Below are positions 4,154 to 63,344 of a stretch of DNA of 64,000 bases, piece after piece. Origin of the DNA: an uncultured Gemmatimonadaceae bacterium (GTDB lineage Bacteria > Gemmatimonadota > Gemmatimonadetes > Gemmatimonadales > Gemmatimonadaceae); assembly GCA_963817955.1 (NCBI GenBank), contig CAWFQK010000001.1:192001-256000 (forward strand), read 5' to 3'. How positions within the stretch are numbered: position 1 is the stretch's first letter; each line of letters begins with the position of its first letter. Below the pieces are notes generated by a model that worked only from the letters and a program-made list of their open reading frames with translations, did no database searches and had not been told where the DNA came from. Both the position numbers and the translations under genes were made by a program.

Positions 4154-4667
4154 GTGAACGAAGAGCTAATGTAGAGACGCGAAGGGCGGCCAGGGTGGGC
4201 GGCGGCGAGCGGGGGGATGGCGCAAGCGATCGGGATGACGGGTGACTGTGATCAGTCATCAGTGCGGAGTTCTCAGACCTCAGTGACTGAGGACCCCGAC
4301 AGCCCTCGATTGGGCGAACAGACCCACGACCATCCACCCCCCAATCAGACGCGCGGCCGCGAAAGCCGACCCGAGCGAGGAGCCGTCGCCTTGTCGCGCG
4401 ACTGACGACTGACAACCCACCACTGGCCACTGACGACCTCACCCGCTGTCCCGATCGCGAGATCCCGCGTGTCGCTGCGGACCCAGTCTCAACGGTTCGG
4501 CGGTCCTCTGCGCTCTCCCCGGTAACCAGCTTCTCCACGGCCCCAGGAATCATCCATTCGCGCGCTCATCTCCGGGATGACCCTCCTTCGAGGTAAACGC
4601 GATTGAACTGGCATCAATTACGCTGGCAGGCATGTGCGTGTTCGAATCCGGCCGCCCCGCCGGTCAG

Positions 4668-4703: not shown

Positions 4704-4739
4704 CGTGTCTCGTGTCTCGTGTCTTCGTGTCCCGTGTCA
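4704..4739. repeat. Heptamer tandem repeat (CGTGTCT)n
   Basis: cgtgtct cgtgtct cgtgtctt cgtgtcc cgtgtc; similar heptamers at about 51230-51275. Confidence 0.6.
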
Positions 4740-14357: not shown

Positions 14358-15895
14358 TTCCAACGATGCCATCCGTGCAGGAATCGCTGGCGGCGATGGT
14401 TGAATTTTCGGACGACGCGATGATGGGCCTGACGGTTGATGGCATCGTCACCAGCTGGAACGACGCGGCCGCGCGGATGTACGGCTTTGCCGCCACGGAC
14501 ATGATTGGCCGGAGCGTGCTGGACATCGTGCCGGCGGAGCTGCACGACCTGGAGCGGCGCAGGTTGGCCGCGGCCGCCGGCGGAACGCGCGTTGGCAGTG
14601 TCGAGACGTCGCGCGCCCGACGCGACGGTACGCGGCTGGCCGTGTCGTTGAGTCTGTTTCCCGTACCGTCCATGGGACGGAGCGTGAGCGGTATCGTTGC
14701 CATCGAGCGCGACCTCACGCAGCAACACGCCCTCGAGTCGCAACTCCTGCAAGCCAAGCGGATGGAAGCCGTGGGCCGCCTGGTTGGCGGCGTCGCGCAG
14801 GAATTCAACAACATCAACACCGCCATTCTGGGGTTGGTCGAATTCGTCGGCGAACGGCTGCCCGATCGCTCCGAGGCGCGCGCAGATCTCAACGAGATCA
14901 CGAAGCAGGCCATGCGCGCTTCGCGCCTGGCCCGGCATCTGTTGGCATTCGGTGGCCGGCCGGCGCTCGCGGCACACCCCGTCTCGCTGGACGATCTGTT
15001 GCACGCTATGGAGCCGCTGCTCGGGCGGTTGGCCAGTGAGGGCGTGTGGCTCTCGCTGGATCTGGCGCACGATGGCGCGCACGTGCTCGCCGACGAATCG
15101 CAGCTCGAGATGATCGTCTTCGACCTATTGGTCAACGCGTCGCACACCGTAGGCGACCGCGGCACCATCCTGCTATCCACACGCACGCGCGTGATCGGCG
15201 ACACGTCGTTGACCTCGCGCGCGGGTGTGCCGAATGGCGAGTATGTGGAATTGACGGTGCGTGACTCGGGTCCGAGTTTCGGGTCCCGCTCCGGCAGCGG
15301 CTCTGGCTCTGGTTCCGGCGCCGGCAACGCTGCGCGGATTGAGCGGGACGTGTCGATGGTCTCTGGCGTCATACATCAACTCGGCGGATATCTGCTGACG
15401 TCGACCACCGAGCCGTCCGACACCGAAGTGAGCGTGTTTCTTCCGCTGGCCGCGGCAAGCGAGACCGAGCGTGCTCCAGCGGAGGCATCGGTCGGTGACG
15501 TGCGGGGGAACGAGACCATTCTCGTGGTGGAAGACGAGAATGCCGTGCGCGACGTGATCGTCCGGGGGTTGCGAGCCAACGGGTACAACGTGATCGAGGC
15601 GCGAAGTGGCGAGGATGCGTTGGCGGTCGCTGGAGACTACGCCGCACCGATGCATCTGGTGGTGAGCGATGTGGTGATGCCACAGATGGACGGGCGCGAG
15701 CTCTTCGACCATGTCCGTGCATGGTATCCGCACATCCGCTTTCTGTTCATCTCCGGCTACACGCGCGGCGTCATCACCGGCCAGCAGTTGCAGGGCCCGT
15801 TCACCGGCTTCCTAGCCAAGCCATTCAGTGTGGACGATCTCTGCGCCAAGGTGCGCTCGCTGCTCGACGCCACGCGACCGCCAGACGAACCTTGA
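14354..15895 (+). CDS. PAS-pseudokinase-receiver protein (degenerate hybrid kinase)
   Basis: ATGA overlap; H-box reads GGVAQEFNN; F and G2 boxes are replaced by a (SG)n linker; receiver intact (VSDVVMP). Confidence 0.85.
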   Translation: MIPTMPSVQESLAAMVEFSDDAMMGLTVDGIVTSWNDAAARMYGFAATDMIGRSVLDIVPAELHDLERRRLAAAAGGTRVGSVETSRARRDGTRLAVSLSLFPVPSMGRSVSGIVAIERDLTQQHALESQLLQAKRMEAVGRLVGGVAQEFNNINTAILGLVEFVGERLPDRSEARADLNEITKQAMRASRLARHLLAFGGRPALAAHPVSLDDLLHAMEPLLGRLASEGVWLSLDLAHDGAHVLADESQLEMIVFDLLVNASHTVGDRGTILLSTRTRVIGDTSLTSRAGVPNGEYVELTVRDSGPSFGSRSGSGSGSGSGAGNAARIERDVSMVSGVIHQLGGYLLTSTTEPSDTEVSVFLPLAAASETERAPAEASVGDVRGNETILVVEDENAVRDVIVRGLRANGYNVIEARSGEDALAVAGDYAAPMHLVVSDVVMPQMDGRELFDHVRAWYPHIRFLFISGYTRGVITGQQLQGPFTGFLAKPFSVDDLCAKVRSLLDATRPPDEP

Positions 15896-16446
15896 CAGAC
15901 TGTTGAACTACGAGTGAATCGCCAGTCATCCTGAGCAAATAAGCCTGTCATCCTGAGCGAAGCGAAGGATCTCTATGACCGATTCAACAGCTTTGAACAC
16001 AGAGGTCGCAGAGAACTGCAAGAGAACTGCAGAGGACCGTGAAGGATTGTCTCGCGTGGGTGTCTTGGGTGATGCCGTCGTGGGGCTCCGATGGTATCGC
16101 CCAAGTCGGGATCATCAACGATATAGGCGGAATGTTTGTGGACTCGGCATCCACGGATCATTCCACTGATACGTGCTTCCCTCTTCCGTACGCTTACAGT
16201 TCTCTTTGCAGGCCCCTTTTCCAGTATTCTTTTGCAGTTCTCTTTTGCAGTTCTCTGCAGTTCTCTTTTGCAGTTCTCCTGCAGTTCTCTTTTTGCAGTC
16301 CTCTGCAGTTCTCCTGCAGTTCTCTGCGACCTCTGCGTTAAAGCTGTTCGGCCGCTCCGCGTTCAAACGCTGTTCCGGCCCTCGAATTGATGCGCATGCC
16401 CTCGAGCTTCTGACTCCTGTCCAGCACTATTTCAACAGTCTGTTAA
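15892..16446. mobile_element. Nested palindromic element: outer IR, REP copies, inner IR and TGCAGTTCTC-type tandem array
   Basis: Outer IR TTGACAGACTGTTGAA (15892-15907) / TTCAACAGTCTGTTAA (16431-16446); GTCATCCTGAGC twice in 15925-15974; inner IR 15986-16037 / 16298-16348; tandem array about 16195-16325. Confidence 0.7.
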
Positions 16447-16472
16447 CGCGCGGCGGCTCCCGCGCACCGTGA

Positions 16473-17573
16473 CTACGGCCGTCGGCCGCTCGGACCAGGC
16501 GCGTGGCCGCGCGGCACACCGAACGGCTGACGCGGCGCGTCCTGTCTCGGCTCGTGCCGGGATTCTGCACCCGGGAATCCATGCGCGCCGCTGCGATACA
16601 CGATGATCGGCGCCGGATAGACATACGGATAGGTCGCGTATGGCGAGTACATGCTGGCACCGTACTCCGTTGGATATGCTGGATACGCTTGCGCCTGGTA
16701 ACAGCCGGCGGGCGGGCAGACGTACATCGTCGTCATCTGCGGCGGAGCGTTCGCGTAGATGTCCGCATTCTGGCTCGGCGCAGCATATTGCGCATCCTTG
16801 TCGCGCGGCGTCGCGCCAAGCATGGCCTGCAGCACCGATGCCGGTAGATTCGCCCGCGCCAGCAACGTCGCCTGCTCGGTATTGAAGTCAAAATGCTGCT
16901 CGCTCGCGATGAGCCACGACCGCACCACAGCGGAATCCGCGATGCGGAGCGCATCCATCACGTCATCGATCGTGATCGGCGCCGTGGCGGCCGCACGCGC
17001 CGTGGCGATCGCCAGCCGCTGCTGAGCAATCGCGTGAGCAGTGCTGGCCGAAAGCTCCTCCGGCGGGTCTACCTCGTGTAGACGGCTGACGGACACGATC
17101 GCGCCGCCGCCCGATCGCACCGAGCCAACCCGAAGCCAGTCGCCTCGCGGGGTAAACGCAAATAGCGTGGACGAACTTCCGCGCGTTCCGCCGCACGCGT
17201 AATTGGCGCGCACGTATGCGCGCCGCGCGCCGGCAGCCCAGCTCACCGATTCCGTACCGCTGCAGCCTTGGCCGTCCAGCGGCTGCGCGCGTCCCATGGC
17301 GTCGAGCCGCTCACGTGACACCTCGCGTCCGTGCAAGAACGTGAGCACATCGACCACGCGCGAACCAGCGACGGGAACGACGCACGTCACACTCGACGAC
17401 GACGTGCCGCCGCTGCCGGGTAACGAATCCGGCGCCCAGCAACCGAGCCACGCCGTCCAGCGGCGGTCGGGATTTACCGCGGTAGCTTGGCCGCGCGCCG
17501 AGTGCGCCACGGAGCCACCGACAGTGAACGCCGCCGCAAACAGCAGGCTGGTAAGTCCGACGTGGTGCCGCAT
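16473..17573 (-). CDS. Hypothetical secreted protein with Pro/Tyr-rich C-terminus
   Basis: 366-aa ORF with a signal peptide, paired cysteines and a low-complexity tail. Confidence 0.75.
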   Translation of the reverse strand: MRHHVGLTSLLFAAAFTVGGSVAHSARGQATAVNPDRRWTAWLGCWAPDSLPGSGGTSSSSVTCVVPVAGSRVVDVLTFLHGREVSRERLDAMGRAQPLDGQGCSGTESVSWAAGARRAYVRANYACGGTRGSSSTLFAFTPRGDWLRVGSVRSGGGAIVSVSRLHEVDPPEELSASTAHAIAQQRLAIATARAAATAPITIDDVMDALRIADSAVVRSWLIASEQHFDFNTEQATLLARANLPASVLQAMLGATPRDKDAQYAAPSQNADIYANAPPQMTTMYVCPPAGCYQAQAYPAYPTEYGASMYSPYATYPYVYPAPIIVYRSGAHGFPGAESRHEPRQDAPRQPFGVPRGHAPGPSGRRP

Positions 17574-22792: not shown

Positions 22793-22907
22793 GAAGATGA
22801 CAATGGTCGGCGTCGACCGAATTGGTCAGGAAAGGAGGGATTGAGAGAGTCTCGGTCGATCTGACGGTCGGGTTAGGGGGTGGAATGACTGGTTACTAGA
22901 TGAAATC

Positions 22908-23259
22908 TGACGGCGCGAACTGCTAACGGCGCTGACTCCCTGACGGCGCTGACTCCCTAACGGCGCTGACTCCCTAACGGCGCTGACTCCCTAACGGCGC
23001 TGACTCCCTGACTGCGGCTTACGGCGGCTTACTGCGTTTGCGGCGCTGACTCCCTGGCGGCGGTTACTGCGCCAGCATCGCTGACCGATCCGAGGTCGCG
23101 TATTGAAGGTGGCCTTACGTCCGCCGTAAGCCGCCGTTCGCGCCGTAAGCCGCCGTCAGGGAGTTGGCGCAGTCAGGGAGTTAGCGCCGTTCGGGAGTCA
23201 GCGTAGGTAGGGAGTCAGCGCCGTCAGGGAGTCAGCGCCGTTAGCAGTTCGCGCCGTCA
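22908..23259. mobile_element. Family A palindromic element, copy 1 (arms of 17-bp ACGGCGCTGACTCCCT[G/A] units)
   Basis: 52-bp perfect terminal inverted repeat starting TGACGGCGCGAAC; core shared with copies at 27334 and 29651. Confidence 0.85.
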
Positions 23260-23879: not shown

Positions 23880-24448
23880 TTCCCACTCGGGCAAATCTGT
23901 CCCCAGTTGCTACCTGATCTCTTCGAAGAAGCCGCGACTACAATTGACCTCAAACTGTCGGTACTTGACCTCAAACTGTCGGTACTTCATGCGCCGGCTC
24001 CAGTTCGATGACCGGCGGGGTAGCGAAGAGTTGCGAGGTGACCAGGGTCGTGCACCCACCCGGCTACGAACGCGTCCGCGGTTGCGGTCCCCGCCAGCTG
24101 CATCGCGATGTTCTCCCCACTCCGTCGAAGCGGCCGCCGACTGCGCAAACACGCTCGGCGGGAGTGACATGTTCGGGTATCGGCGATGTGTGAGAGAAGA
24201 AGTGGTACTGCCCCATGGCTCGGCTGTGGCATTCCGCGGCGACGCCGAGCGTGTCGCTCCAGCATAGCGCCGATCGGCCATTGCGTTTCCGAACCGCATT
24301 CACGCGCTCATGAATCGCCTGGATGAGCGCCGTTGATTGCGCCATCGCTCGACACTGGAAGACTGTCGAATCGTCTCGTGCCATGGTGCAACTACCACGA
24401 GGCGACGAAGATGATGATCGCGCCTCTGATGCCAATCGTGCTGGACAT
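23880..24448 (-). pseudogene. CAP/SCP domain protein, disrupted
   Basis: VNAVRKRNG..L, HSRAM..HFFSH in one frame; GENIA and W..DPGH in another (shift at the C4 run 24115-24118); in-frame TGA at 23987-23989. Boundaries approximate. Confidence 0.8.
23944..23985. repeat. Exact 21-bp tandem duplication
   Basis: TTGACCTCAAACTGTCGGTAC twice. Confidence 0.9.
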
Positions 24449-27333: not shown

Positions 27334-27762
27334 GACAGCGCGAAGCGCTGACGGCGCGAACGGCTGACGGCGCTGACTCCCTAACGGCGCGAACGGCTGA
27401 CGGCGCTGACTCCCTGACGGCGCCGACTCCCTGACTACGCCAACTCCCTGACAGCGCTGACTCCCTAACGGCGCTAACGCCCTGACGGCGGCTGACGGCG
27501 GCTGACGGCGGCTTACTGCGTTTGCGGCGCTGACTCCCTGACGGCGGTTACTGCGCCGGCATCGCTGACCAATCCGAGGTCGCGTACAGAAGGTGGCCTT
27601 ACGTCCGCCGTTCGCGCCGTTCGAGCCCGCCGTAAGCCGCCGTCAGGGAGTCAGCGCCGTTAGGGAGTTGGCGCCGTTAGGGAGTTAGCGCCGTCAGGGA
27701 GTCAGCGCCGTCAGGGAGTCAGCGCCGTCAGCCGTTCGCGCCGTCAGCGCTTCGCGCTGTCA
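27334..27762. mobile_element. Family A palindromic element, copy 2
   Basis: Both ends carry the private extension GACAGCGCGAAGCGC; same core as copy 1; fills the gap between two convergent genes. Confidence 0.85.
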
Positions 27763-29553
27763 ACCCATCACGCGATTTCGGCCCGCCCCCTTCGCCTCAT
27801 ATAACTTCCCGTCCGCCTTTTCCAGCGCCGCCCAAGCATTGTCGCCCGCCATTCCATCGGCGAGCCCGATGCTGATGGTGACGCGAAGGCCGGTGGCAAT
27901 CGTGGCCCAGTCGTACCGTTCGATGGCCGCGCAAATGTCGTCACACACGCCACGCGCGTCGATGAGGGTGGTCTCGACAAAGAGCAATGCGATCTCCTCA
28001 CCGCCGTACCGCGCGACGACGTCGACCCGCCGAGTGCGTTCGTGAAAGATCTTGGCGACCGTGCGCAGGACCTGGTCGCCTATGGCGTGCGAGAATTCGT
28101 CGTTGATGCTCTTGAATCGATCGAGGTCGGCAAGCGCTATCGTGAGCGGGTGCCCGAATCGACGCGATCGCTCCCATTCGATGGGCAGCCGCTCGTCGAG
28201 ATCCCGACGATTGCGAAGCCCGGTGAGTGCGTCTTCGCGACTGCGGCGCTCGAGCTGGATGGCCTGCGCTTCCAACTGCCTCACCAGTTGCGACTTTTCG
28301 GCGTTCGCCGCGTCCAGCTGCGCGTTTCGTTCTCGGAGGAATTTGGCTTCGCGCTCTTTCTCCCGTAACTCCATCTGCACCATGGCGCTCAGCACCCGTC
28401 GCTCGGCGTCCGCGCCCCGTAGCTCCTCGTGCAGGGTATGGTACTCCTTGAAGTGCCGGAGGGCGGGCTCCCCCTGACCGAGGGTCTCGTATACGGTGAA
28501 CAGCGCCCGATGGATGTCGGCCCGCTGTTGGCGCGATCCGCCCGCGCGGTTGACAGCGAGCGCCTCCATCAGCGACGTCAACGCCGCGTCATGTTGGCCA
28601 ATACGCGCGAGCGTTTCACCGATCTGAAGGTGCGCCTCCGCATGATGGCCCCCGAGGTGCCGCGCCTCACTCGTGGCGTGGACCTCCTGGAGAATGCTGA
28701 GGGCGCCCTTGAAATTGCCGGCGTCGCGGCGGAGCAGCGCGATGTTCTCCAGGATCTCGACTTCGGCGTCGGCATGGCCTGCTTGGCGTGCGAGCTGCAG
28801 GCCGGCATCATAGTGCTTGAGGGCAACGTCAGGATTGCCCAGACGAGCATAGGCAAAGCCGACGTTGCTCTGGGCGAGCGCGGCATTCAGGGTCTCGCCG
28901 CGGCTCAGATAGTCGGCCAAGGCGCGCTCATGAAAGTGCAGGGCCTCGTCGTCCTGTCCAAGCGCTCCGAGCGCCGAGCCGATGTTATGCACGGTCCAGG
29001 ATATTCCCTGGTTGTTACCGAGTTCCTCAAAGAGGTCGGTGCTTGCGCGGTACTGTTCGAGGGCTGGCGCGATCTCGCCCGCGACGGCATGGACACCGCC
29101 TAGTGCGCAGCGCGTTTCCGCTTCACCGGCTTTGTCGCCAAACTCGCACTGGAGCTCGAGCGCGGTGAGGTAGAATCGAGCGGCTTCGTAGCAGTCGCCG
29201 AGACTCTGATGCACGCGACCCAGGACGGTGAGCGTCGCGGCGCGCTCTGTCGTCTCGCCGAGTCGATCGAAAATCGCGCACGCGGCGGTCGCATCCTGGA
29301 GGGCACCGTCGAGATCGAGCAGCCGTGATCGGCACGCCGCACCCGCGCGCAACGCCCGTGCCTCCCCATGGCGATATCCGGCGGCGCGAGCGAGGGATAA
29401 TGCCTCTGCCGCCAGAGACAGTCCGTCAGCCCCGCCGGTAAACCGCATGGCGTCGGCGCGGGTGGTCAGCGCATCAATATGCTGCGCGACGTCAAGGGTG
29501 ACGCCTGCAGCATTGCTTCCCTCATATGACGTACTGAGGTCAAGCTGCTCCAT
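27760..29553 (-). CDS. TPR-repeat diguanylate cyclase (GGDEF)
   Basis: TPR-like repeats; DALTGLRNRR; RxxD I-site (RRVD) and GGEEI; start placed at ATG 29553 because the ORF-track extension runs into a repeat. Confidence 0.9.
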   Translation of the reverse strand: MEQLDLSTSYEGSNAAGVTLDVAQHIDALTTRADAMRFTGGADGLSLAAEALSLARAAGYRHGEARALRAGAACRSRLLDLDGALQDATAACAIFDRLGETTERAATLTVLGRVHQSLGDCYEAARFYLTALELQCEFGDKAGEAETRCALGGVHAVAGEIAPALEQYRASTDLFEELGNNQGISWTVHNIGSALGALGQDDEALHFHERALADYLSRGETLNAALAQSNVGFAYARLGNPDVALKHYDAGLQLARQAGHADAEVEILENIALLRRDAGNFKGALSILQEVHATSEARHLGGHHAEAHLQIGETLARIGQHDAALTSLMEALAVNRAGGSRQQRADIHRALFTVYETLGQGEPALRHFKEYHTLHEELRGADAERRVLSAMVQMELREKEREAKFLRERNAQLDAANAEKSQLVRQLEAQAIQLERRSREDALTGLRNRRDLDERLPIEWERSRRFGHPLTIALADLDRFKSINDEFSHAIGDQVLRTVAKIFHERTRRVDVVARYGGEEIALLFVETTLIDARGVCDDICAAIERYDWATIATGLRVTISIGLADGMAGDNAWAALEKADGKLYEAKGAGRNRVMG

Positions 29554-29650: not shown

Positions 29651-30048
29651 GACGGCGCGAACGGCTGACGGCGCTGACTCCCTGACGGCGCTGACTCCCT
29701 ACCTACGCTGACTCCCGAACGGCGCCAACTCCCTGACTGCGCCAACTCCCTGACGGCGGCTTACGGCGGACGTAAGGCCACCTTCTGTACGCGACCTCGG
29801 ATTGGTCAGCGATGCCGGCGCAGTAACCGCCGCCAGGGAGTCAGCGCCGCAAACGCAGTAAGCCGCCGTAAGCCGCAGTCAGGGAGTCAGCGCCGTTAGG
29901 GAGTCAGCGCCGTTAGGGAGTCAGCGCCGTTAGGGAGTCAGCGCCGTCAGGGAGTCAGCGCCGTTAGCAGTTCGCGCCGTCAGGGAGTCGGCGCAGTCAG
30001 CCGTTCGCGCCGTTAGGGAGTCAGCGCCGTCAGCCGTTCGCGCCGTCA
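29651..30048. mobile_element. Family A palindromic element, copy 3 (core inverted relative to copies 1 and 2)
   Basis: Core GCCACCTTCTGTACGCGACCTCGGATTGGTCAGCGATGCCGGCGCAG is the reverse complement of the copy 2 core. Confidence 0.85.
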
Positions 30049-33000
30049 GAGACGCCACTCTCTCTACCCTCCCCTCAACCGGTTGTCCCGACACCCCTCC
30101 AATCACTTTCGCATACTCCTCCACTTGCCTCCCATACCGCTCGTATCTCGCCGACCATCCAGCATCGTCGACAACGTCGGTCTTCCAGTCGACCACACTC
30201 CATCCATCCGGGCCAACCGCGGCGGCATCGATCACGCCTTCGGTGATCGTCTCGACGCCATCACGCTCGGCACTTGCCATGATCGCTAACTCCACATGCA
30301 GCGTGCCGGCTGCCGTCAGGGCTTCCCACGATTCCGATTCCGCCGTTCGTTCGATCAGAGGATAGAGCGCCGCCGACAGCTCTTCGTCCAACCGCTCCTC
30401 GATCGCTACGGCACGCGCGAAGGCGAGGAGCGAATCGCCCCGGCGGCCGCGGCCGAGTGCTGCGAGGCAACGATGAACGGCGGTTCCCCAGGCGGTTCCA
30501 AGTCCCGTTCCATGCGTTGGGCTTTCTGCCGCGACTCGGTCTTCCATTGCGCCCTTTGCTTCCTCAGTGACGGTCACGAAGCGCAGGGATGGCGTGGCGG
30601 CGACGCGAATGCGGGCGGCTGCGTCGTCGGTCGCCTCCATCAGCGACTGGGTGGTGCGGTCCATACACTTGCGGCCGGGAGCGGACTCTACCTTCAGCTC
30701 TTTGGGAATCGCATGCTCATCGAGCATCGGGGCCAGCGGCCGCCACATGGAGTTGTCCAGCTTGGGGGTCGAACTCGTAGCGACTTCACACTGCGCCACA
30801 TAGAGCTCCCGCTTCGCTCGAGTCGCCGCGACGTAAAGCAGACGGGCTCTTTCTGCGTCCTGAAAGCGCGACTCCAGTTCCGCCATGTCGGCCCACTCCG
30901 GCGGCTGCGCCAGCACGTGAGTGTTGTGACCCTGTTGATGGGTGATGGACAAACCTCCCCTGGCACCACCGCTCTCACCGCGCGAAATGTGCACGCGCGG
31001 CTCGAACACCTTTCGGTCGACAGGTTCTGCAAGAATGACCACGTCGGACTCGAGACCCTTTGCCTTGTGCAGATTCATTACGCGCACGACATCGGTGCGG
31101 CCCGGGCGGAGCGGAGCGTCGGCCGCCTCGGCTCTCAGAATGGTTTCGAGGTATTCCATTGCGTCCGGAAGGCCATTCGCCCCCGCCACGGCCGATTCGC
31201 GTAGTGACGCAAGCAGATGGAGCAGCGCACCAGCGCGTGTTTCCCCGAGCGGCTGCGCCGCGGCGTGCAAGAGCAGACCACTCTCGTCCAGAATGCGTTC
31301 GAGAAGAATGTCCGCGGGATGACGTTGCGAGGCTTTCCACCACTCGTGTAATTGCAGCAGCGCGCGGGCTGCTGCGTCGGCCTCGTCGAGTGGCCGATGG
31401 CTGACGGAAAAGCGAATGCCGCGCTGTGATGCGTTCCACAGGTCCGCCGGGCTCATACCAAAGAACAGTCCTTCGAGCGCCGCCACGACGGCAATCGTAT
31501 TGTCCGGATCGGCAAGGGCGCGCAACACCACGAGGAGCTCGCGCAACTCATGCTCCTCTACCAGGCGCGCCCCTGTGGTCGCAACCGGAATGTTTCGCTC
31601 GATGAGCGCACGGGCGTACTGTTCGATGGGCGTCTTGGTCGCGGTGAGCACCATGAAATCGCCGGCTACCTTTTCGCCTTTCGCAATCCTGCCGGCGATG
31701 AAGCTCGCCACCATTGCTGCATCCAACTCGATGACGGCACCCTTTGCTCGCCCAGGTGGACGAACGGCGTATGTATAGACGCCGTCCCTTCCTTCCGGCT
31801 CGTGCTGGGTCTCCATGGGGCGATACGCCGCTTGTTCCGGCGTGGCCATCGCCGGAAACACTTCTGAGAAGTGGCAATTGACCACGGCTTCAACGGAACT
31901 CACCGAGCGGAAATTCGACGTGAGCGGCAGCACGACGCCGAACGCCTCCATGCGGCGTTTCACCAGCTCGTACGTCTCGATGTCAGCACGACGAAATCGG
32001 AAAATGCTCTGCTTCGGGTCGCCAACCACGAACAAGCTGCCGGGCCGCGGTGTCACGCGCCGCCAATCTTCGCCTTCGCTGGAATTGGACGTGAGCAGAA
32101 AGCACACCTCGGCCTGAATCGGATCAGTGTCCTGGAATTCATCCACGAGCAGGTGGGCATAGCGTGCACCAAGGTCATCCCGAACCGCCGGATGTTCGCG
32201 CAGCAGCCGGGCGGTGAGGAGCAGCAAATCCTCGAAGCCGAGCTGCCCCGTTGCGTGCCGTTCGCGGGCAAACTCCGACGCTGCGCGCTGAAGCACTTCC
32301 ATCACCAACGGATAGCGGTGCTCGCGCCAACAGCGGAGGACGTCGGCAATCGGCCCCTCGACCAATGTTGCGAAATCGTCGCGCAGGTTCTTTGCTTGAA
32401 GCTTGTCTTCCTTGGAATCGCTCCAGCGCTTCTGGACCACTTTGCAGTCGGACTTGGAGATCGACGCCAATACATCGCACAAGGTGGCGATGTCATCGAA
32501 CTGGCCGACGCTTCGCTTGAACTCCAGTCGACGCACGAGACTCATCACGCCGTCCCAACCGTCGCTGGGCTCTTCACGCGGCATCGCATGGCGCGCAGCG
32601 GCGAGGAGCCTCTCCAACTGCTCGCGACACAGCGTCGTATTTGGCTTCGCGACCGGGGTGAGCGGAAAGTCGACGTCGGGATACGTCATCACCAAGTTGA
32701 ACCCCTGGTACAACACGGATGGATCGATCCCCACCGAGTACAGCGCCGTGAGCCCGGCATCGTTGTTACGCTTCGCTCGCTCCACCCAGCGTCGCCAGAA
32801 GCGCCGCGTCATCTCCTCCCAATCGTCGTCACTGACCTCCTGAAAGTTCGGGTCCAACCCCGCTTCCAGCGGCCGTTCCCGCAGGAGCCGCGCACAGAAC
32901 GAGTGAATCGTGCCAAGGAACGCACGATCGAGCTCGTGGAGCGCACGGTCATAGCGCGCCGTCTCTTCGGACGTGTCGCCGGATTTGCGCAGTGCCTGCT

Positions 33001-52441: not shown

Positions 52442-53863
52442 ATGACATATCGCATCTTCTTCCTGGGTGCCACCTCGAGCGCGCTGCTCGTTGCGTTGCA
52501 CGCCTATCCAGCGCGCGATGCTCTTGCGCGCTCAGTCTCTGCGATCGCGCAGACGTCCTCATTGGACGACTCGACGGTCCTGCGTCTCATTCGTGAACGG
52601 GTGGACACGCGCCGCAACGTAGGCCTGGTCATCGGCATCATCGACTCCACGGGGCGTCGGCACGTCTACGAGTACGGCCGCTTGAACGGCCAGGGCTCAC
52701 CAGAGGTGGACGCAAACACGGTCTTCGAGATCGGCTCGATCACCAAGACGTTCACCACGACGCTCCTGGCCGCCATGGTGCGCCAGGGCGAGGTCGCGCT
52801 CGATGACCCCGTCTCGAAGTTCTTGCCGTCCGAGGTCCGCATGCAGGCGAACGGACGCGACATCACCCTGGAGGACCTCGCGACGCAGAGCTCGGGCCTT
52901 CCCCCCATGCCAGCCAACTTCCACCCGAAGAATGTGGAAGATCCATACGCGGATTATGGGACGCCGCAGCTCGACGGGTTCCTCACGGGCTACACGCCGC
53001 CGACCGCACCGGGGGTGAAATATGAATACTCTAACCTCGGCGTCGGCCTGCTCGGCTATGTCTTGAGCCGCCGAGCGGGCGTGCCGTACGAGCGACTGAT
53101 CGAGCAGCGCGTGCTCGCGCCGCTCGGCATGTCGGACACGCGGTTGGTATTGACGCCGGACATGAAGCGCCGGCTCGCCCCAGGCCACAACCGTGACGGC
53201 GACGAGGTGTCAGGTTGGACCTTCGACGCACTCGCCAGCGCCGGTGCGTTGCGATCCACCGTGAACGACCTGATGCGGTACGTTGCCGCCAATCTCGACA
53301 GCACGAGTCGCCCGCTCGGAGCCGTGCTCCGCGGCGCCCATCAGCCGCGTCGGCCGACGACCATTCCCAACACGCAGATCGGGCTCGCCTGGCACGTGCT
53401 CCGTGTGAACAACTCCGACGTCATCTGGCACAACGGCGAAACGGGAGGCTATCACTCCTTCATCGCGGTCGACCCAACGCGTCACGTGGGAGTGGTGGTG
53501 CTCAGCAACTCGGCGACGTCGATCGACGATCTGGGAATGCATCTCGTGGATGAGCGAATCCCGCTACATTTGCCGCCTGCGCCGCCGATCGAAGTGGTAC
53601 AGGATTCGATGATGGTGGACACGTACGTCGGAACGTACGAGCTCGCACCCGGCGCGAGGATGACGGTGACGAGAGCGGGATCGAAGCTCTACTTGCAGCC
53701 AACCGGGCAACAGAGGGTCCGCGTTTTTCCAACGTCGGATTCGACGTACAAGCTGACGGTCGTCGATGCACAGTTGACCTTTCATCACGACGCGCAAGGG
53801 AGGGTGAGTGAGATGGAATTGAGACAGGGGGGGAGGGAGATGAGGGGGGTTCGGGTTCGTTGA
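52442..53863 (+). CDS. Serine hydrolase (beta-lactamase class C-like) with DUF3471-like C-terminus
   Basis: SxxK (GSITK), YSN, WHNG; C-terminal YVGTY domain. Confidence 0.9.
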   Translation: MTYRIFFLGATSSALLVALHAYPARDALARSVSAIAQTSSLDDSTVLRLIRERVDTRRNVGLVIGIIDSTGRRHVYEYGRLNGQGSPEVDANTVFEIGSITKTFTTTLLAAMVRQGEVALDDPVSKFLPSEVRMQANGRDITLEDLATQSSGLPPMPANFHPKNVEDPYADYGTPQLDGFLTGYTPPTAPGVKYEYSNLGVGLLGYVLSRRAGVPYERLIEQRVLAPLGMSDTRLVLTPDMKRRLAPGHNRDGDEVSGWTFDALASAGALRSTVNDLMRYVAANLDSTSRPLGAVLRGAHQPRRPTTIPNTQIGLAWHVLRVNNSDVIWHNGETGGYHSFIAVDPTRHVGVVVLSNSATSIDDLGMHLVDERIPLHLPPAPPIEVVQDSMMVDTYVGTYELAPGARMTVTRAGSKLYLQPTGQQRVRVFPTSDSTYKLTVVDAQLTFHHDAQGRVSEMELRQGGREMRGVRVR

Positions 53864-54010
53864 CGGCGCGAACTGCTGACGGCGCTGACTCCCTGACAGC
53901 GCTGACTCCCAAACTGCGCTGACTCCCTCACGGCGCCAACTCCCTAACGGCGCTGACTCCCTGACGGCGGCTGACGGCGGACTTACAGCGTTGTTTACGG
54001 CGTTTACGGC
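53861..54010 (+). repeat. Family A left arm (partner at 56720-56818)
   Basis: TGACGGCGCGAAC terminus followed by 17-bp units in one orientation only. Confidence 0.85.
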
Positions 54011-59907: not shown

Positions 59908-59913
59908 GAGGCG

Positions 59914-60407
59914 TAACGGCGCAAACGGCTGACGGCGCTGACTCCGTAACGGCGCGAACTGCTGACGGCGCTGACGCCCTAACGGCGCTGACTCCCTGAC
60001 GGCGCCAACTCCCTGAGGTCGCTGACTCCCTAACGGCGCCAACTCCCTGACGGCGGGCTTACGGCGGGCTTACGGCGGATGACTCCCTAGCACGAACGGT
60101 TCGGAGGAACCGCGCGCGGTCTACGCCGAGCCTGCGGACCAAACCTTCGGAGATACTCGCCCGATGGATTGCGCGGAATTTCAGAGCGGCTCGACGTGCA
60201 GCAGCCGGGGAGTGAAGTCGACCAGCTGAACCATCTCACCAGCTACGAGATCCGCGCCAAACGCCCGCCGTAAGCCGCCGTAAGCCCGCCGTAAGCCGCC
60301 GTCAGGGAGTTGGCGCCGTTAGGGAGTCAGCGACCTCAGGGAGTTGGCGCCGTCAGGGAGTCAGCGCCGTTAGGGCGTCAGCGCCGTCAGCAGTTCGCGC
60401 CGTTACG
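59914..60407. mobile_element. Family A palindromic element, copy 5, with a distinct core
   Basis: 112-bp perfect inverted repeat (59945-60056 / 60296-60407) around a unique core. Confidence 0.88.
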
Positions 60408-63246: not shown

Positions 63247-63264
63247 GCATGGAAAGCTAGTCGC

Positions 63265-63344
63265 CGCGCGCGACGAGCTCCGCGCGCGACGAGGTTCGCG
63301 CCCGACGAGCTCCGCGCCCGACGAGCTCCGCGCGCCACGAGGTT
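63265..63344. repeat. Five 16-bp tandem repeats CGCGC[G/C]CGACGAG[CTC/GTT]
   Basis: Units at 63265, 63281, 63297, 63313 and 63329 between divergent genes. Confidence 0.85.

Follow-up and report, generated by a model that had tools for sequence, protein, structure and literature searches.

Intervening sequences (IVSs) of ribosomal RNA (rRNA) sit in helices of the 23S or 16S molecule and are removed by RNase III, and the IVS of Leptospira 23S rRNA is one that bears an open reading frame (ORF). Another is the 23S rRNA IVS of Coxiella burnetii, for which the consulted sections of the published account describe a small ORF (S23p) in the loop of a long stem, regarded as selfish (PMC4990558). In a second kind of system, repetitive extragenic palindromic (REP) sequences paired into hairpins (REPINs) occur together with REP-associated tyrosine transposases (RAYTs); according to the consulted parts of two papers, a gene enclosed by the repeats is present once or twice, next to many short, palindromic and hairpin-forming copies that are non-autonomous (PMC3116915, PMC3337134). 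A third kind comprises the insertion sequences (ISs) of the IS5 family and MITEs (miniature inverted-repeat transposable elements), among which a MITE with an internal minisatellite is known in Porphyromonas gingivalis, as given in the consulted part of that source (PMC4596501). Here we analyze positions 15896-16442 of a 64,000-nt stretch of DNA (the window, C1:192001-256000) from an uncultured Gemmatimonadaceae bacterium, whose genome assembly (G000) measures 4.53 Mb with 64% G+C and is 94% complete. These positions very probably form a single 547-bp composite, non-autonomous mobile element, with a MITE shell outside and, inside it, a hairpin cassette built around a gutted gene of the GxxExxY family.

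This element compares differently with each of the three. It has the long stem of the ORF-bearing IVSs, and a sister family in the same genome encodes the same protein family, PF05635, that they do. However, it lies outside rRNA, adjoining a PAS/receiver gene, its full-length form carries the gene for a PD-(D/E)XK nuclease, its arms are made of tandem units, and dozens of its copies have no ORF. With the REPIN/RAYT systems it shares the many gene-less hairpin copies and the few gene-bearing ones, but its protein has a PD-(D/E)XK fold and is not a Y1/HUH transposase, the link between nuclease and mobility is only putative, and its arms are modular and 100-130 nt long where REPs measure 20-40 nt. 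The outer shell has the CAG-starting terminal repeats, the multiple copies and the internal arrays of IS5-family ISs and MITEs, with a putative 4-bp CTAR-type duplication and no internal transposase; however, its ends agree with those of the resident IS of this genome at only 8 of 12 bases, and it carries a second, unrelated hairpin cassette as cargo. We found no description of GxxExxY or IVP (23S_rRNA_IVP, PF05635) hairpin cassettes in the literature, and no paper tying GxxExxY to repeats.

Three observations are established for the element: its homology to two full-length cassettes, the deletion junction and lost start codon that it has in common with other gutted copies, and a module order that is fixed in nine shell-bounded copies.

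A GxxExxY relic in the core

With the arms removed, positions 16037-16164 align over 128 nt (79.7% identity, E 1.5e-29) with the 71 nt upstream and the first 57 nt of both full-length GxxExxY genes (L001 1124..997 and L002 1154..1027). When the full-length element is oriented with its gene on the plus strand, the alignment runs colinearly from the S-B module of the left arm to codon 19, at 80% identity (233 columns, E 4e-58), and homology returns in the right arm. The plus-strand ORF of the relic has 14 of 29 residues identical to residues 2-30 of the intact GxxExxY protein (E 6e-6).

A preliminary description made from the window's sequence had proposed a GxxExxY relic here, the second in the window. 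The descent from a GxxExxY gene holds, but on the plus strand and for 19 N-terminal codons, whereas the proposal had been built on a minus-strand reading (ISGMI...) which we could not recover: the minus-strand ORFs 15973-16161 and 15984-16154 gave no BLASTP alignment to the genome's intact GxxExxY protein at E <= 100, and none of five short core ORFs had a Pfam match at E <= 10 or any match to NCBIfam (TIGR04256). Nor does the core follow the order of a full-length gene with blocks deleted, as had been supposed; what survives is the upstream region with the gene's first 19 codons, and no more of the gene. Translated profile searches of the core were blank on both strands, and the relic was exposed only by comparison with the full-length copies.

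No ORF of the element reached the curated cut-off for the GxxExxY family (PF13366 PDDEXK_3/TIGR04256, a domain of about 116 positions). The relic stops at codon 19, ahead of E27, D67, E77 and K79, which are invariant in 27 sequences; because it ends before the GxxExxY motif and the nuclease residues, it is a relic and not a gene. We conclude from the alignments that the core derives from the upstream region and 19 N-terminal codons of a GxxExxY gene read on the plus strand.

Full-length cassettes and a gutted derivative

The arm unit TGCAGTTCTC forms 66 clusters in the genome, 48 of which have arms in both orientations around a core, mostly of 130-250 nt. Two cores, both on contig C2, are long (486 and 497 nt), and each holds an intact 125-aa ORF (PF13366, E 1.4e-38; TIGR04256, E 4e-40) whose family scores (132 and 137 bits) pass the curated cut-off. 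No other GxxExxY gene was found in the genome, and both of these lie between CAGAG-type arms, which in the full-length copies measure 90 nt and are 95.6% complementary.

Along one full-length element, the depth of BLAST matches from the whole genome is 86-163x in the arms, 43-61x in the upstream region and gene start, 2x only in the gene interior and 9-13x in the last part of the gene. The N-terminal remnant occurs in 36 of the 48 cores (class A), comprising 34 ORF-less copies and the two full-length ones, while a second, smaller class retains the 3' end of the gene. The start-codon context was located in 29 copies, and every one of these has an identical deletion junction; at the start position 24 of them read GGG, three GAG and two GTG. 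In the aligned core, conservation reaches 90% or more in most columns. The common junction together with the common loss of the start codon indicates that one deletion derivative was copied many times. The gutted form has thus multiplied as such, which is the behavior of a non-autonomous mobile element.

Association of GxxExxY genes with such arms extends to relatives. Each of the 24 further genomes sampled from the genus has two to nine GxxExxY genes, and at 12 of 28 sampled loci the flanking inverted repeat exceeded the maximum of 150 random control sites; the arms at these 12 loci are mostly arrays of CRCAGAG-like units adjoining the gene. The expectation that CAGAG-type arms flank GxxExxY genes was therefore borne out, for both genes here and for those 12 loci. 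Of the 30 GxxExxY loci sampled, 16 did not outscore random sites.

The large GxxExxY family (PF13366) is entered as 'function unknown' in the consulted part of a PD-(D/E)XK survey (PMC3424549). The confident structure model of the protein (predicted local distance difference test, pLDDT, 94.7) has a minimal restriction-endonuclease-like fold. By Z score its nearest fold neighbors are BpuSI (nuclease domain, 8.2), Cas4 SSO0001 (7.8) and Hjc (6.5), all generic matches; Foldseek gave no hit at E <= 0.001, and a sequence search of the PDB with the intact protein returned only chance-level rows (E about 0.7). The predicted fold is consistent with a nuclease and is silent on its substrate.

Arm modules and the S-B mini-hairpin

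Mapping of the modules over the genome gave one canonical order: S units, B, N, C, the T array, the core, and then the mirror image. The full-length copies match this order exactly. S units stand in tandem, up to about 13 in other copies, and the units of the arm arrays are 10-13 nt long and bear CAGAG. Exact matches in the genome number 318 for TGCAGTTCTC, 172 for GTCATCCTGAGC, 62 for CAGAGGTCGCAGAG and 14 for ACAGACTGTTGAA. The preliminary description had seen three nested repeat families targeting one another. The outermost repeat is indeed separate, belonging to the MITE shell, but the GTCATCCTGAGC units and the CAGAG arrays are parts of one arm. We rejected three independent families because the same module order recurs in nine shell-bounded copies, and because S, B, N, C and T are colinear with the full-length arms.

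The linker between B and N is variable. In the 10 copies with symmetric arms it is equal on both arms of one element and differs among elements; own-arm identity in these copies is 0.945 against 0.874 between elements, a value reached by none of 5000 permutations.

The junction of S and B forms an exact 25-mer, GTCATCCTGAGCGAAGCGAAGGATC, that reaches far beyond this family. It was found in at least 124 reference-genome stretches, with Acidobacteriota, Bacteroidota, Bacillota, Chloroflexota, Nitrospirota, Verrucomicrobiota, Patescibacteria, Proteobacteria and others among the phylum labels of the matches listed. The 25-mer is often preceded by tandem GTCATCCTGAGC half-units, or occurs as an inverted pair around a 10-40-nt loop, giving a tight hairpin. 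Runs of soil DNA show very high depth on this module with many different flanks. At 80 loci of other phyla, no GxxExxY or IVP ORF was found within 600 nt of it, and the S-B sequence was not found in published papers. Its inner 5-bp stem covaries: in 15 units the left half departs from the consensus, and 11 of these have a right half to match it (shuffles: mean 0.2, maximum 2). Folded alone with nearest-neighbor energies, the unit is no better than shuffles (z = 0.04). The S-B hairpin is thus supported by covariation and not by energy. Its center, GCGAAGC, is the sequence of a very stable DNA mini-hairpin, according to the consulted part of one report (PMC13037366).

The outer shell

The terminal repeat CAGACTGTTGAA ends two distinct subterminal segments, which give 24 A-type and 12 B-type ends in the genome. 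Nine pairs of ends form shells of 117-836 bp with the constant order A end, S units, cassette, B end, and with no long ORF inside; one of them, the 117-bp pair, has a single S unit and lacks the cassette. Read as direct repeats, the 4-bp flanks of the nine pairs match at 27 of 36 positions with the consensus CTAA: three pairs are identical, five match at three of four bases (among them TTGA/TTAA of 15896-16442), and one pair is unlike. Like MITEs, the shells have terminal inverted repeats on many copies, are small and contain no transposase. The shell was seen in this genome only, and in none of 30 other genomes of the genus, and a shell end stands beside roughly half of the cassette copies.

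A 4-bp YTAR target is typical of the IS5 group, whose DDE transposases leave 4-bp direct repeats. The genome has a resident IS of this family, a 1.34-kb element at C1:491059-492400 with a 374-aa frame (DUF772 and DDE_Tnp_1), ends CAGGTCGCTGAA, terminal repeats of 15 bp (CAGGTCGCTGAAAAA) and a CTAG duplication that is perfect. In view of the repeated ends, the paired shells, the CTAA-type flanks and the likeness to the resident IS, we take the outer repeat to be the terminal repeat of a putative species-specific, IS5-type MITE with the cassette as its cargo. Its insertion flank at 15892 took in the stop codon of the upstream PAS/receiver gene.

A B-type end, for which no A-type partner was detected, stands at C2:764637-764669 beside one of the two full-length GxxExxY cassettes, so that gene-bearing copies, too, may have been enclosed in a shell.

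Several points weigh against the element being one shell-borne composite. First, its TTGA/TTAA flanks are one base apart, and one of the nine pairs shows no duplication at all. Second, a nearby shell end is missing from about half of the cassette copies, so the shell cannot account for all of the spread. Third, no transposase with matching ends was found in the 94%-complete genome, the resident IS agreeing at only the 8 of 12 terminal bases noted above. The sole find beside solo ends was a truncated, transposase-like 207-aa ORF (C2:414188-415017, L044 289-1118) which ends 206 nt from a solo A-type shell end and scores 19.6 bits to DUF772, below the cut-off. Fourth, the locus check in close relatives that had been suggested gave no comparison of filled and empty sites: the flanking genes there are only 67-77% identical, lie on different contigs and show no synteny, and no empty site was seen. 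Three soil DNA runs (shares 0.17, 0.15 and 0.00) gave no contig bridging the site; a single joint in one contig, from 16207 to 16292, lies inside the repeat array. Fifth, the own-arm match of the symmetric copies is lost over all 43 two-armed copies (own-arm identity 0.761 against 0.749 for foreign arms, with the own partner best in six), because 33 of these, the copy at 15896-16442 included, have unlike outer arms.

Cassettes around a second protein family

The preliminary description had proposed a hairpin system at 59914, elsewhere in the window, and had taken the element at 15896-16442 for a second family of arms linked with one and the same nuclease family. This coupling fails. The arms of the 59914 type, built of CTGACGGCGCTGACTCC units, occur as pairs at about eight loci, and the only one of these with a long interior holds a 133-aa ORF for a four-helix-bundle protein of the 23S_rRNA_IVP family (PF05635, 58 bits). 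The core at 59914 (60090-60255) aligns over 167 nt, at 86% identity, with the interior of this PF05635 gene, while its best match to the GxxExxY elements has an E value of 0.077, which is no similarity. Since the 59914-type arms enclose an IVP gene, they give no independent support to a nuclease link.

The two families nevertheless follow one plan. Inverted repeats of 48-122 nt enclose both GxxExxY genes and all but one of the five IVP genes, and each arm type has its swarm of loci (14, 16, 79 and about 100). GxxExxY and IVP cassettes are built alike, but they are not one nuclease family.

Five hairpin elements with arms of the CTGACGGCGCTGACTCC type lie inside the window, within 40 kb (22907-23259, 27334-27766, 29664-30049, 53861-54010 and 59912-60403). 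A remnant of the PF05635 gene is present only in 59912-60403; none of the other four matches its coding region. A further repeat family (C1:73398-73730, C3:64409-64773, C4:1195923-1196315 and C2:970619-970955) has outer arrays of GGGACAC and ACTCACA heptamers, an S-like unit GTCCTCCTGAGCGAAGGAC and one IVP2-type cassette arm.

Layout of the element

The element lies between two convergent ORFs. Its 5' neighbor, encoding a 513-aa PAS/receiver protein, ends at 15895; its 3' neighbor is a 366-aa ORF on the minus strand with its end at 16473 and no Pfam match. Rfam gave no match at the gathering threshold in the whole window, and no rRNA. The parts of the element are listed in Table 1.

The nested repeats reported for 15892-16446 are present and far beyond chance. 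Every module recurs genome-wide, and the whole 555 nt, as single-stranded DNA, fold into one long hairpin (-114.4 kcal/mol, z = -9.2) that none of 100 shuffles equals. Both inverted repeats are there, although with other dimensions than first given: the outer one (15892-15910/16428-16446), put at 16 bp with 15 matches, measures 19 nt at 89% complementarity, and the inner one (15993-16037/16298-16342), put at about 51 bp, measures 45 nt at 93%. The two 'REP starts' are present, at 15925 and 15947, as is the expansion of the right arm into an array, which has nine TGCAGTTCTC-type units (16194-16325) where the left arm has two (16010-16031).

Table 1. Parts of the composite element and its flanks, in window coordinates
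Feature	Position	Strand	Remark
Left 4-bp flank TTGA, putative target-site duplication	15892..15895	.	Includes TGA stop of the PAS/receiver gene
Left terminal inverted repeat CAGACTGTTGAA, outer MITE shell	15896..15907	+	
A-type subterminal shell segment (CTACGAGTGAATCGCCA)	15908..15924	+	
Outer arm module, a tandem pair of S units (GTCATCCTGAGC; 15925 and 15947), called 'REP starts'	15925..15958	+	
S-B module GTCATCCTGAGCGAAGCGAAGGATC, small hairpin with ATCCT/AGGAT stem round GCGAAGC	15947..15971	+	25-mer found unchanged across many phyla
Left inner arm: N module (AACAGCTTTGAAC), C module (CAGAGGTCGCAGAG), two GAGAACTGCA units	15986..16036	+	
Remnant of 71 nt that lie upstream of the GxxExxY gene	16037..16107	+	Part of the 79.7%/128-nt alignment
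Remnant of GxxExxY codons 1-19, start GGG for GTG; reads G-IINDIGGMFVDSASTDHS	16108..16164	+	
Family-specific tail past the common deletion junction (CATTCC/ACTGATACG...CTTCCGTACGCT; the slash marks the junction)	16165..16193	+	Junction in 29/29 copies with start-codon context located
Right inner arm array, nine TGCAGTTCTC-type units of 10-14 nt each	16194..16325	+	
Right-arm C and N modules (CTCTGCGACCTCTG, GTTAAAGCTGTT), then a second, degenerate N-like repeat	16322..16380	+	Period 24 at 16331-16380
B-type subterminal shell segment (...CTCGAGCTTCTGACTCCTGTCCAGCACTAT)	16381..16430	+	
Right terminal inverted repeat (TTCAACAGTCTG)	16431..16442	-	
Right 4-bp flank TTAA	16443..16446	.	

Elsewhere in the window, arrays of CGACTGA (4399-4443) and CGTGTCT (4704-4738) heptamers stand about 300 nt apart, and the CGTGTCT array resembles the GGGACAC/GTGTCCC outer arrays flanking full-length cassettes. 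Other tandem repeats of the window are at 1-89 (a 21-nt unit, 4.2 copies), 23944-23987 (a perfect 21-nt doublet) and 63264-63341 (a 16-nt unit, 4.9 copies).

Mechanism and alternative explanations

We propose that the shell-bounded composites would owe their spread to an IS5-type transposase that worked in trans at the shell ends, and that the inner cassette may once have spread by a route of its own that depended on its hairpin arms. The difference in array length between the arms could have come about by replication slippage.

An alternative of the REP/RAYT kind is that the GxxExxY nuclease itself recognizes the arm arrays or the S-B hairpin, cuts or copies both its own and the ORF-less cassettes in trans, and so drives the family. 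The placing of the gene between such arms, for both copies here and at the 12 relatives' loci above the control maximum, suits this idea, as do the class A ratio of two gene-bearing to 34 gene-less copies, the invariant residues in a restriction-endonuclease-like fold, and a unit period of 10-13 nt in the arms, which is about one helical turn. Moreover, no Y1 transposase that could fill the role of a RAYT (PF01797, E <= 0.01) was found in this genome, while 6 of 14 control genomes were positive. Yet the link of nuclease to arms is one of association, and the fold matches are generic. The same architecture surrounds the gene of a four-helix-bundle protein that is no nuclease, so the nuclease is dispensable for the design; more than half of the 30 sampled GxxExxY loci are at or below random-site scores, and the S-B 25-mer of other phyla was found without either ORF nearby. 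Furthermore, part of the spread is explicable by an ordinary transposon shell, so that copy number alone is no proof of the nuclease as transposase. We consider a nuclease-driven family rather unlikely, though the strongest of the alternatives to a shell-borne composite.

A second alternative would place the action in RNA: the arms, once transcribed, form a stem that RNase III cuts out as in an IVS, the insertions are thereby harmless, and the cassette persists in transcribed spacers. The layout, a long stem with a small ORF in its loop, equals that of the ORF-bearing rRNA IVSs, at least as the consulted part of the Coxiella account presents them (PMC4990558), and the arms are kept as complementary pairs; the sister family even encodes PF05635, the protein family of IVSs. 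Against this, the site lies between convergent protein genes and not in rRNA, in a window where Rfam was blank. Mismatches between arms, read on the sense strand of the gene, showed no excess of G-U (27 G-U to 45 A-C in 1110 positions), a weak test because it was ungapped and indels blur the comparison. Such a model explains why insertions are tolerated but not how they spread, and we think it distinctly improbable.

Least of all do we favor a hairpin kept to serve the host, as a bidirectional terminator or mRNA stabilizer between convergent genes: the element does lie between such genes, 29 of 45 assignable neighbor genes (by rough ORF calling) have their 3' end towards an element, and 15700-16700 has three terminator-like sites against a shuffle mean of 0.9, but the crude gene calling left 12 of 48 elements with no neighbor assigned, the terminator-like hits are the repeat units themselves, and the copy number, the common deletion junction and the terminal repeats with flank duplication speak for selfish spread, which makes this explanation very improbable.

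We return, then, to the shell-borne composite. The copy at 15896-16442 is a decayed, non-coding passenger in a transposon shell and is unremarkable taken alone; most likely it brings the cell no benefit beyond a large hairpin between convergent genes.

Significance

The value added here lies in the dissection of the system. The genome offers a clean case within a single organism, with two intact genes enclosed by hairpin arms of modular build, a single gutted derivative present in dozens of copies, and a parallel family around the rRNA-IVS protein. GxxExxY and IVP families stand side by side in it, a single deletion derivative has been amplified, and a shell surrounds about half of the copies. 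As a speculation that we hold to be unlikely, though worth stating, the hairpin-armed cassettes might be one widespread, undescribed selfish class, in which a small protein (GxxExxY or IVP) would act on arms made of arrays of short binding units, and in which the cross-phylum S-B hairpin would be a shared signal for the copying or nicking of single-stranded DNA. If that were true, this genome would show the class at work, with two autonomous copies and 34 of one gutted derivative.

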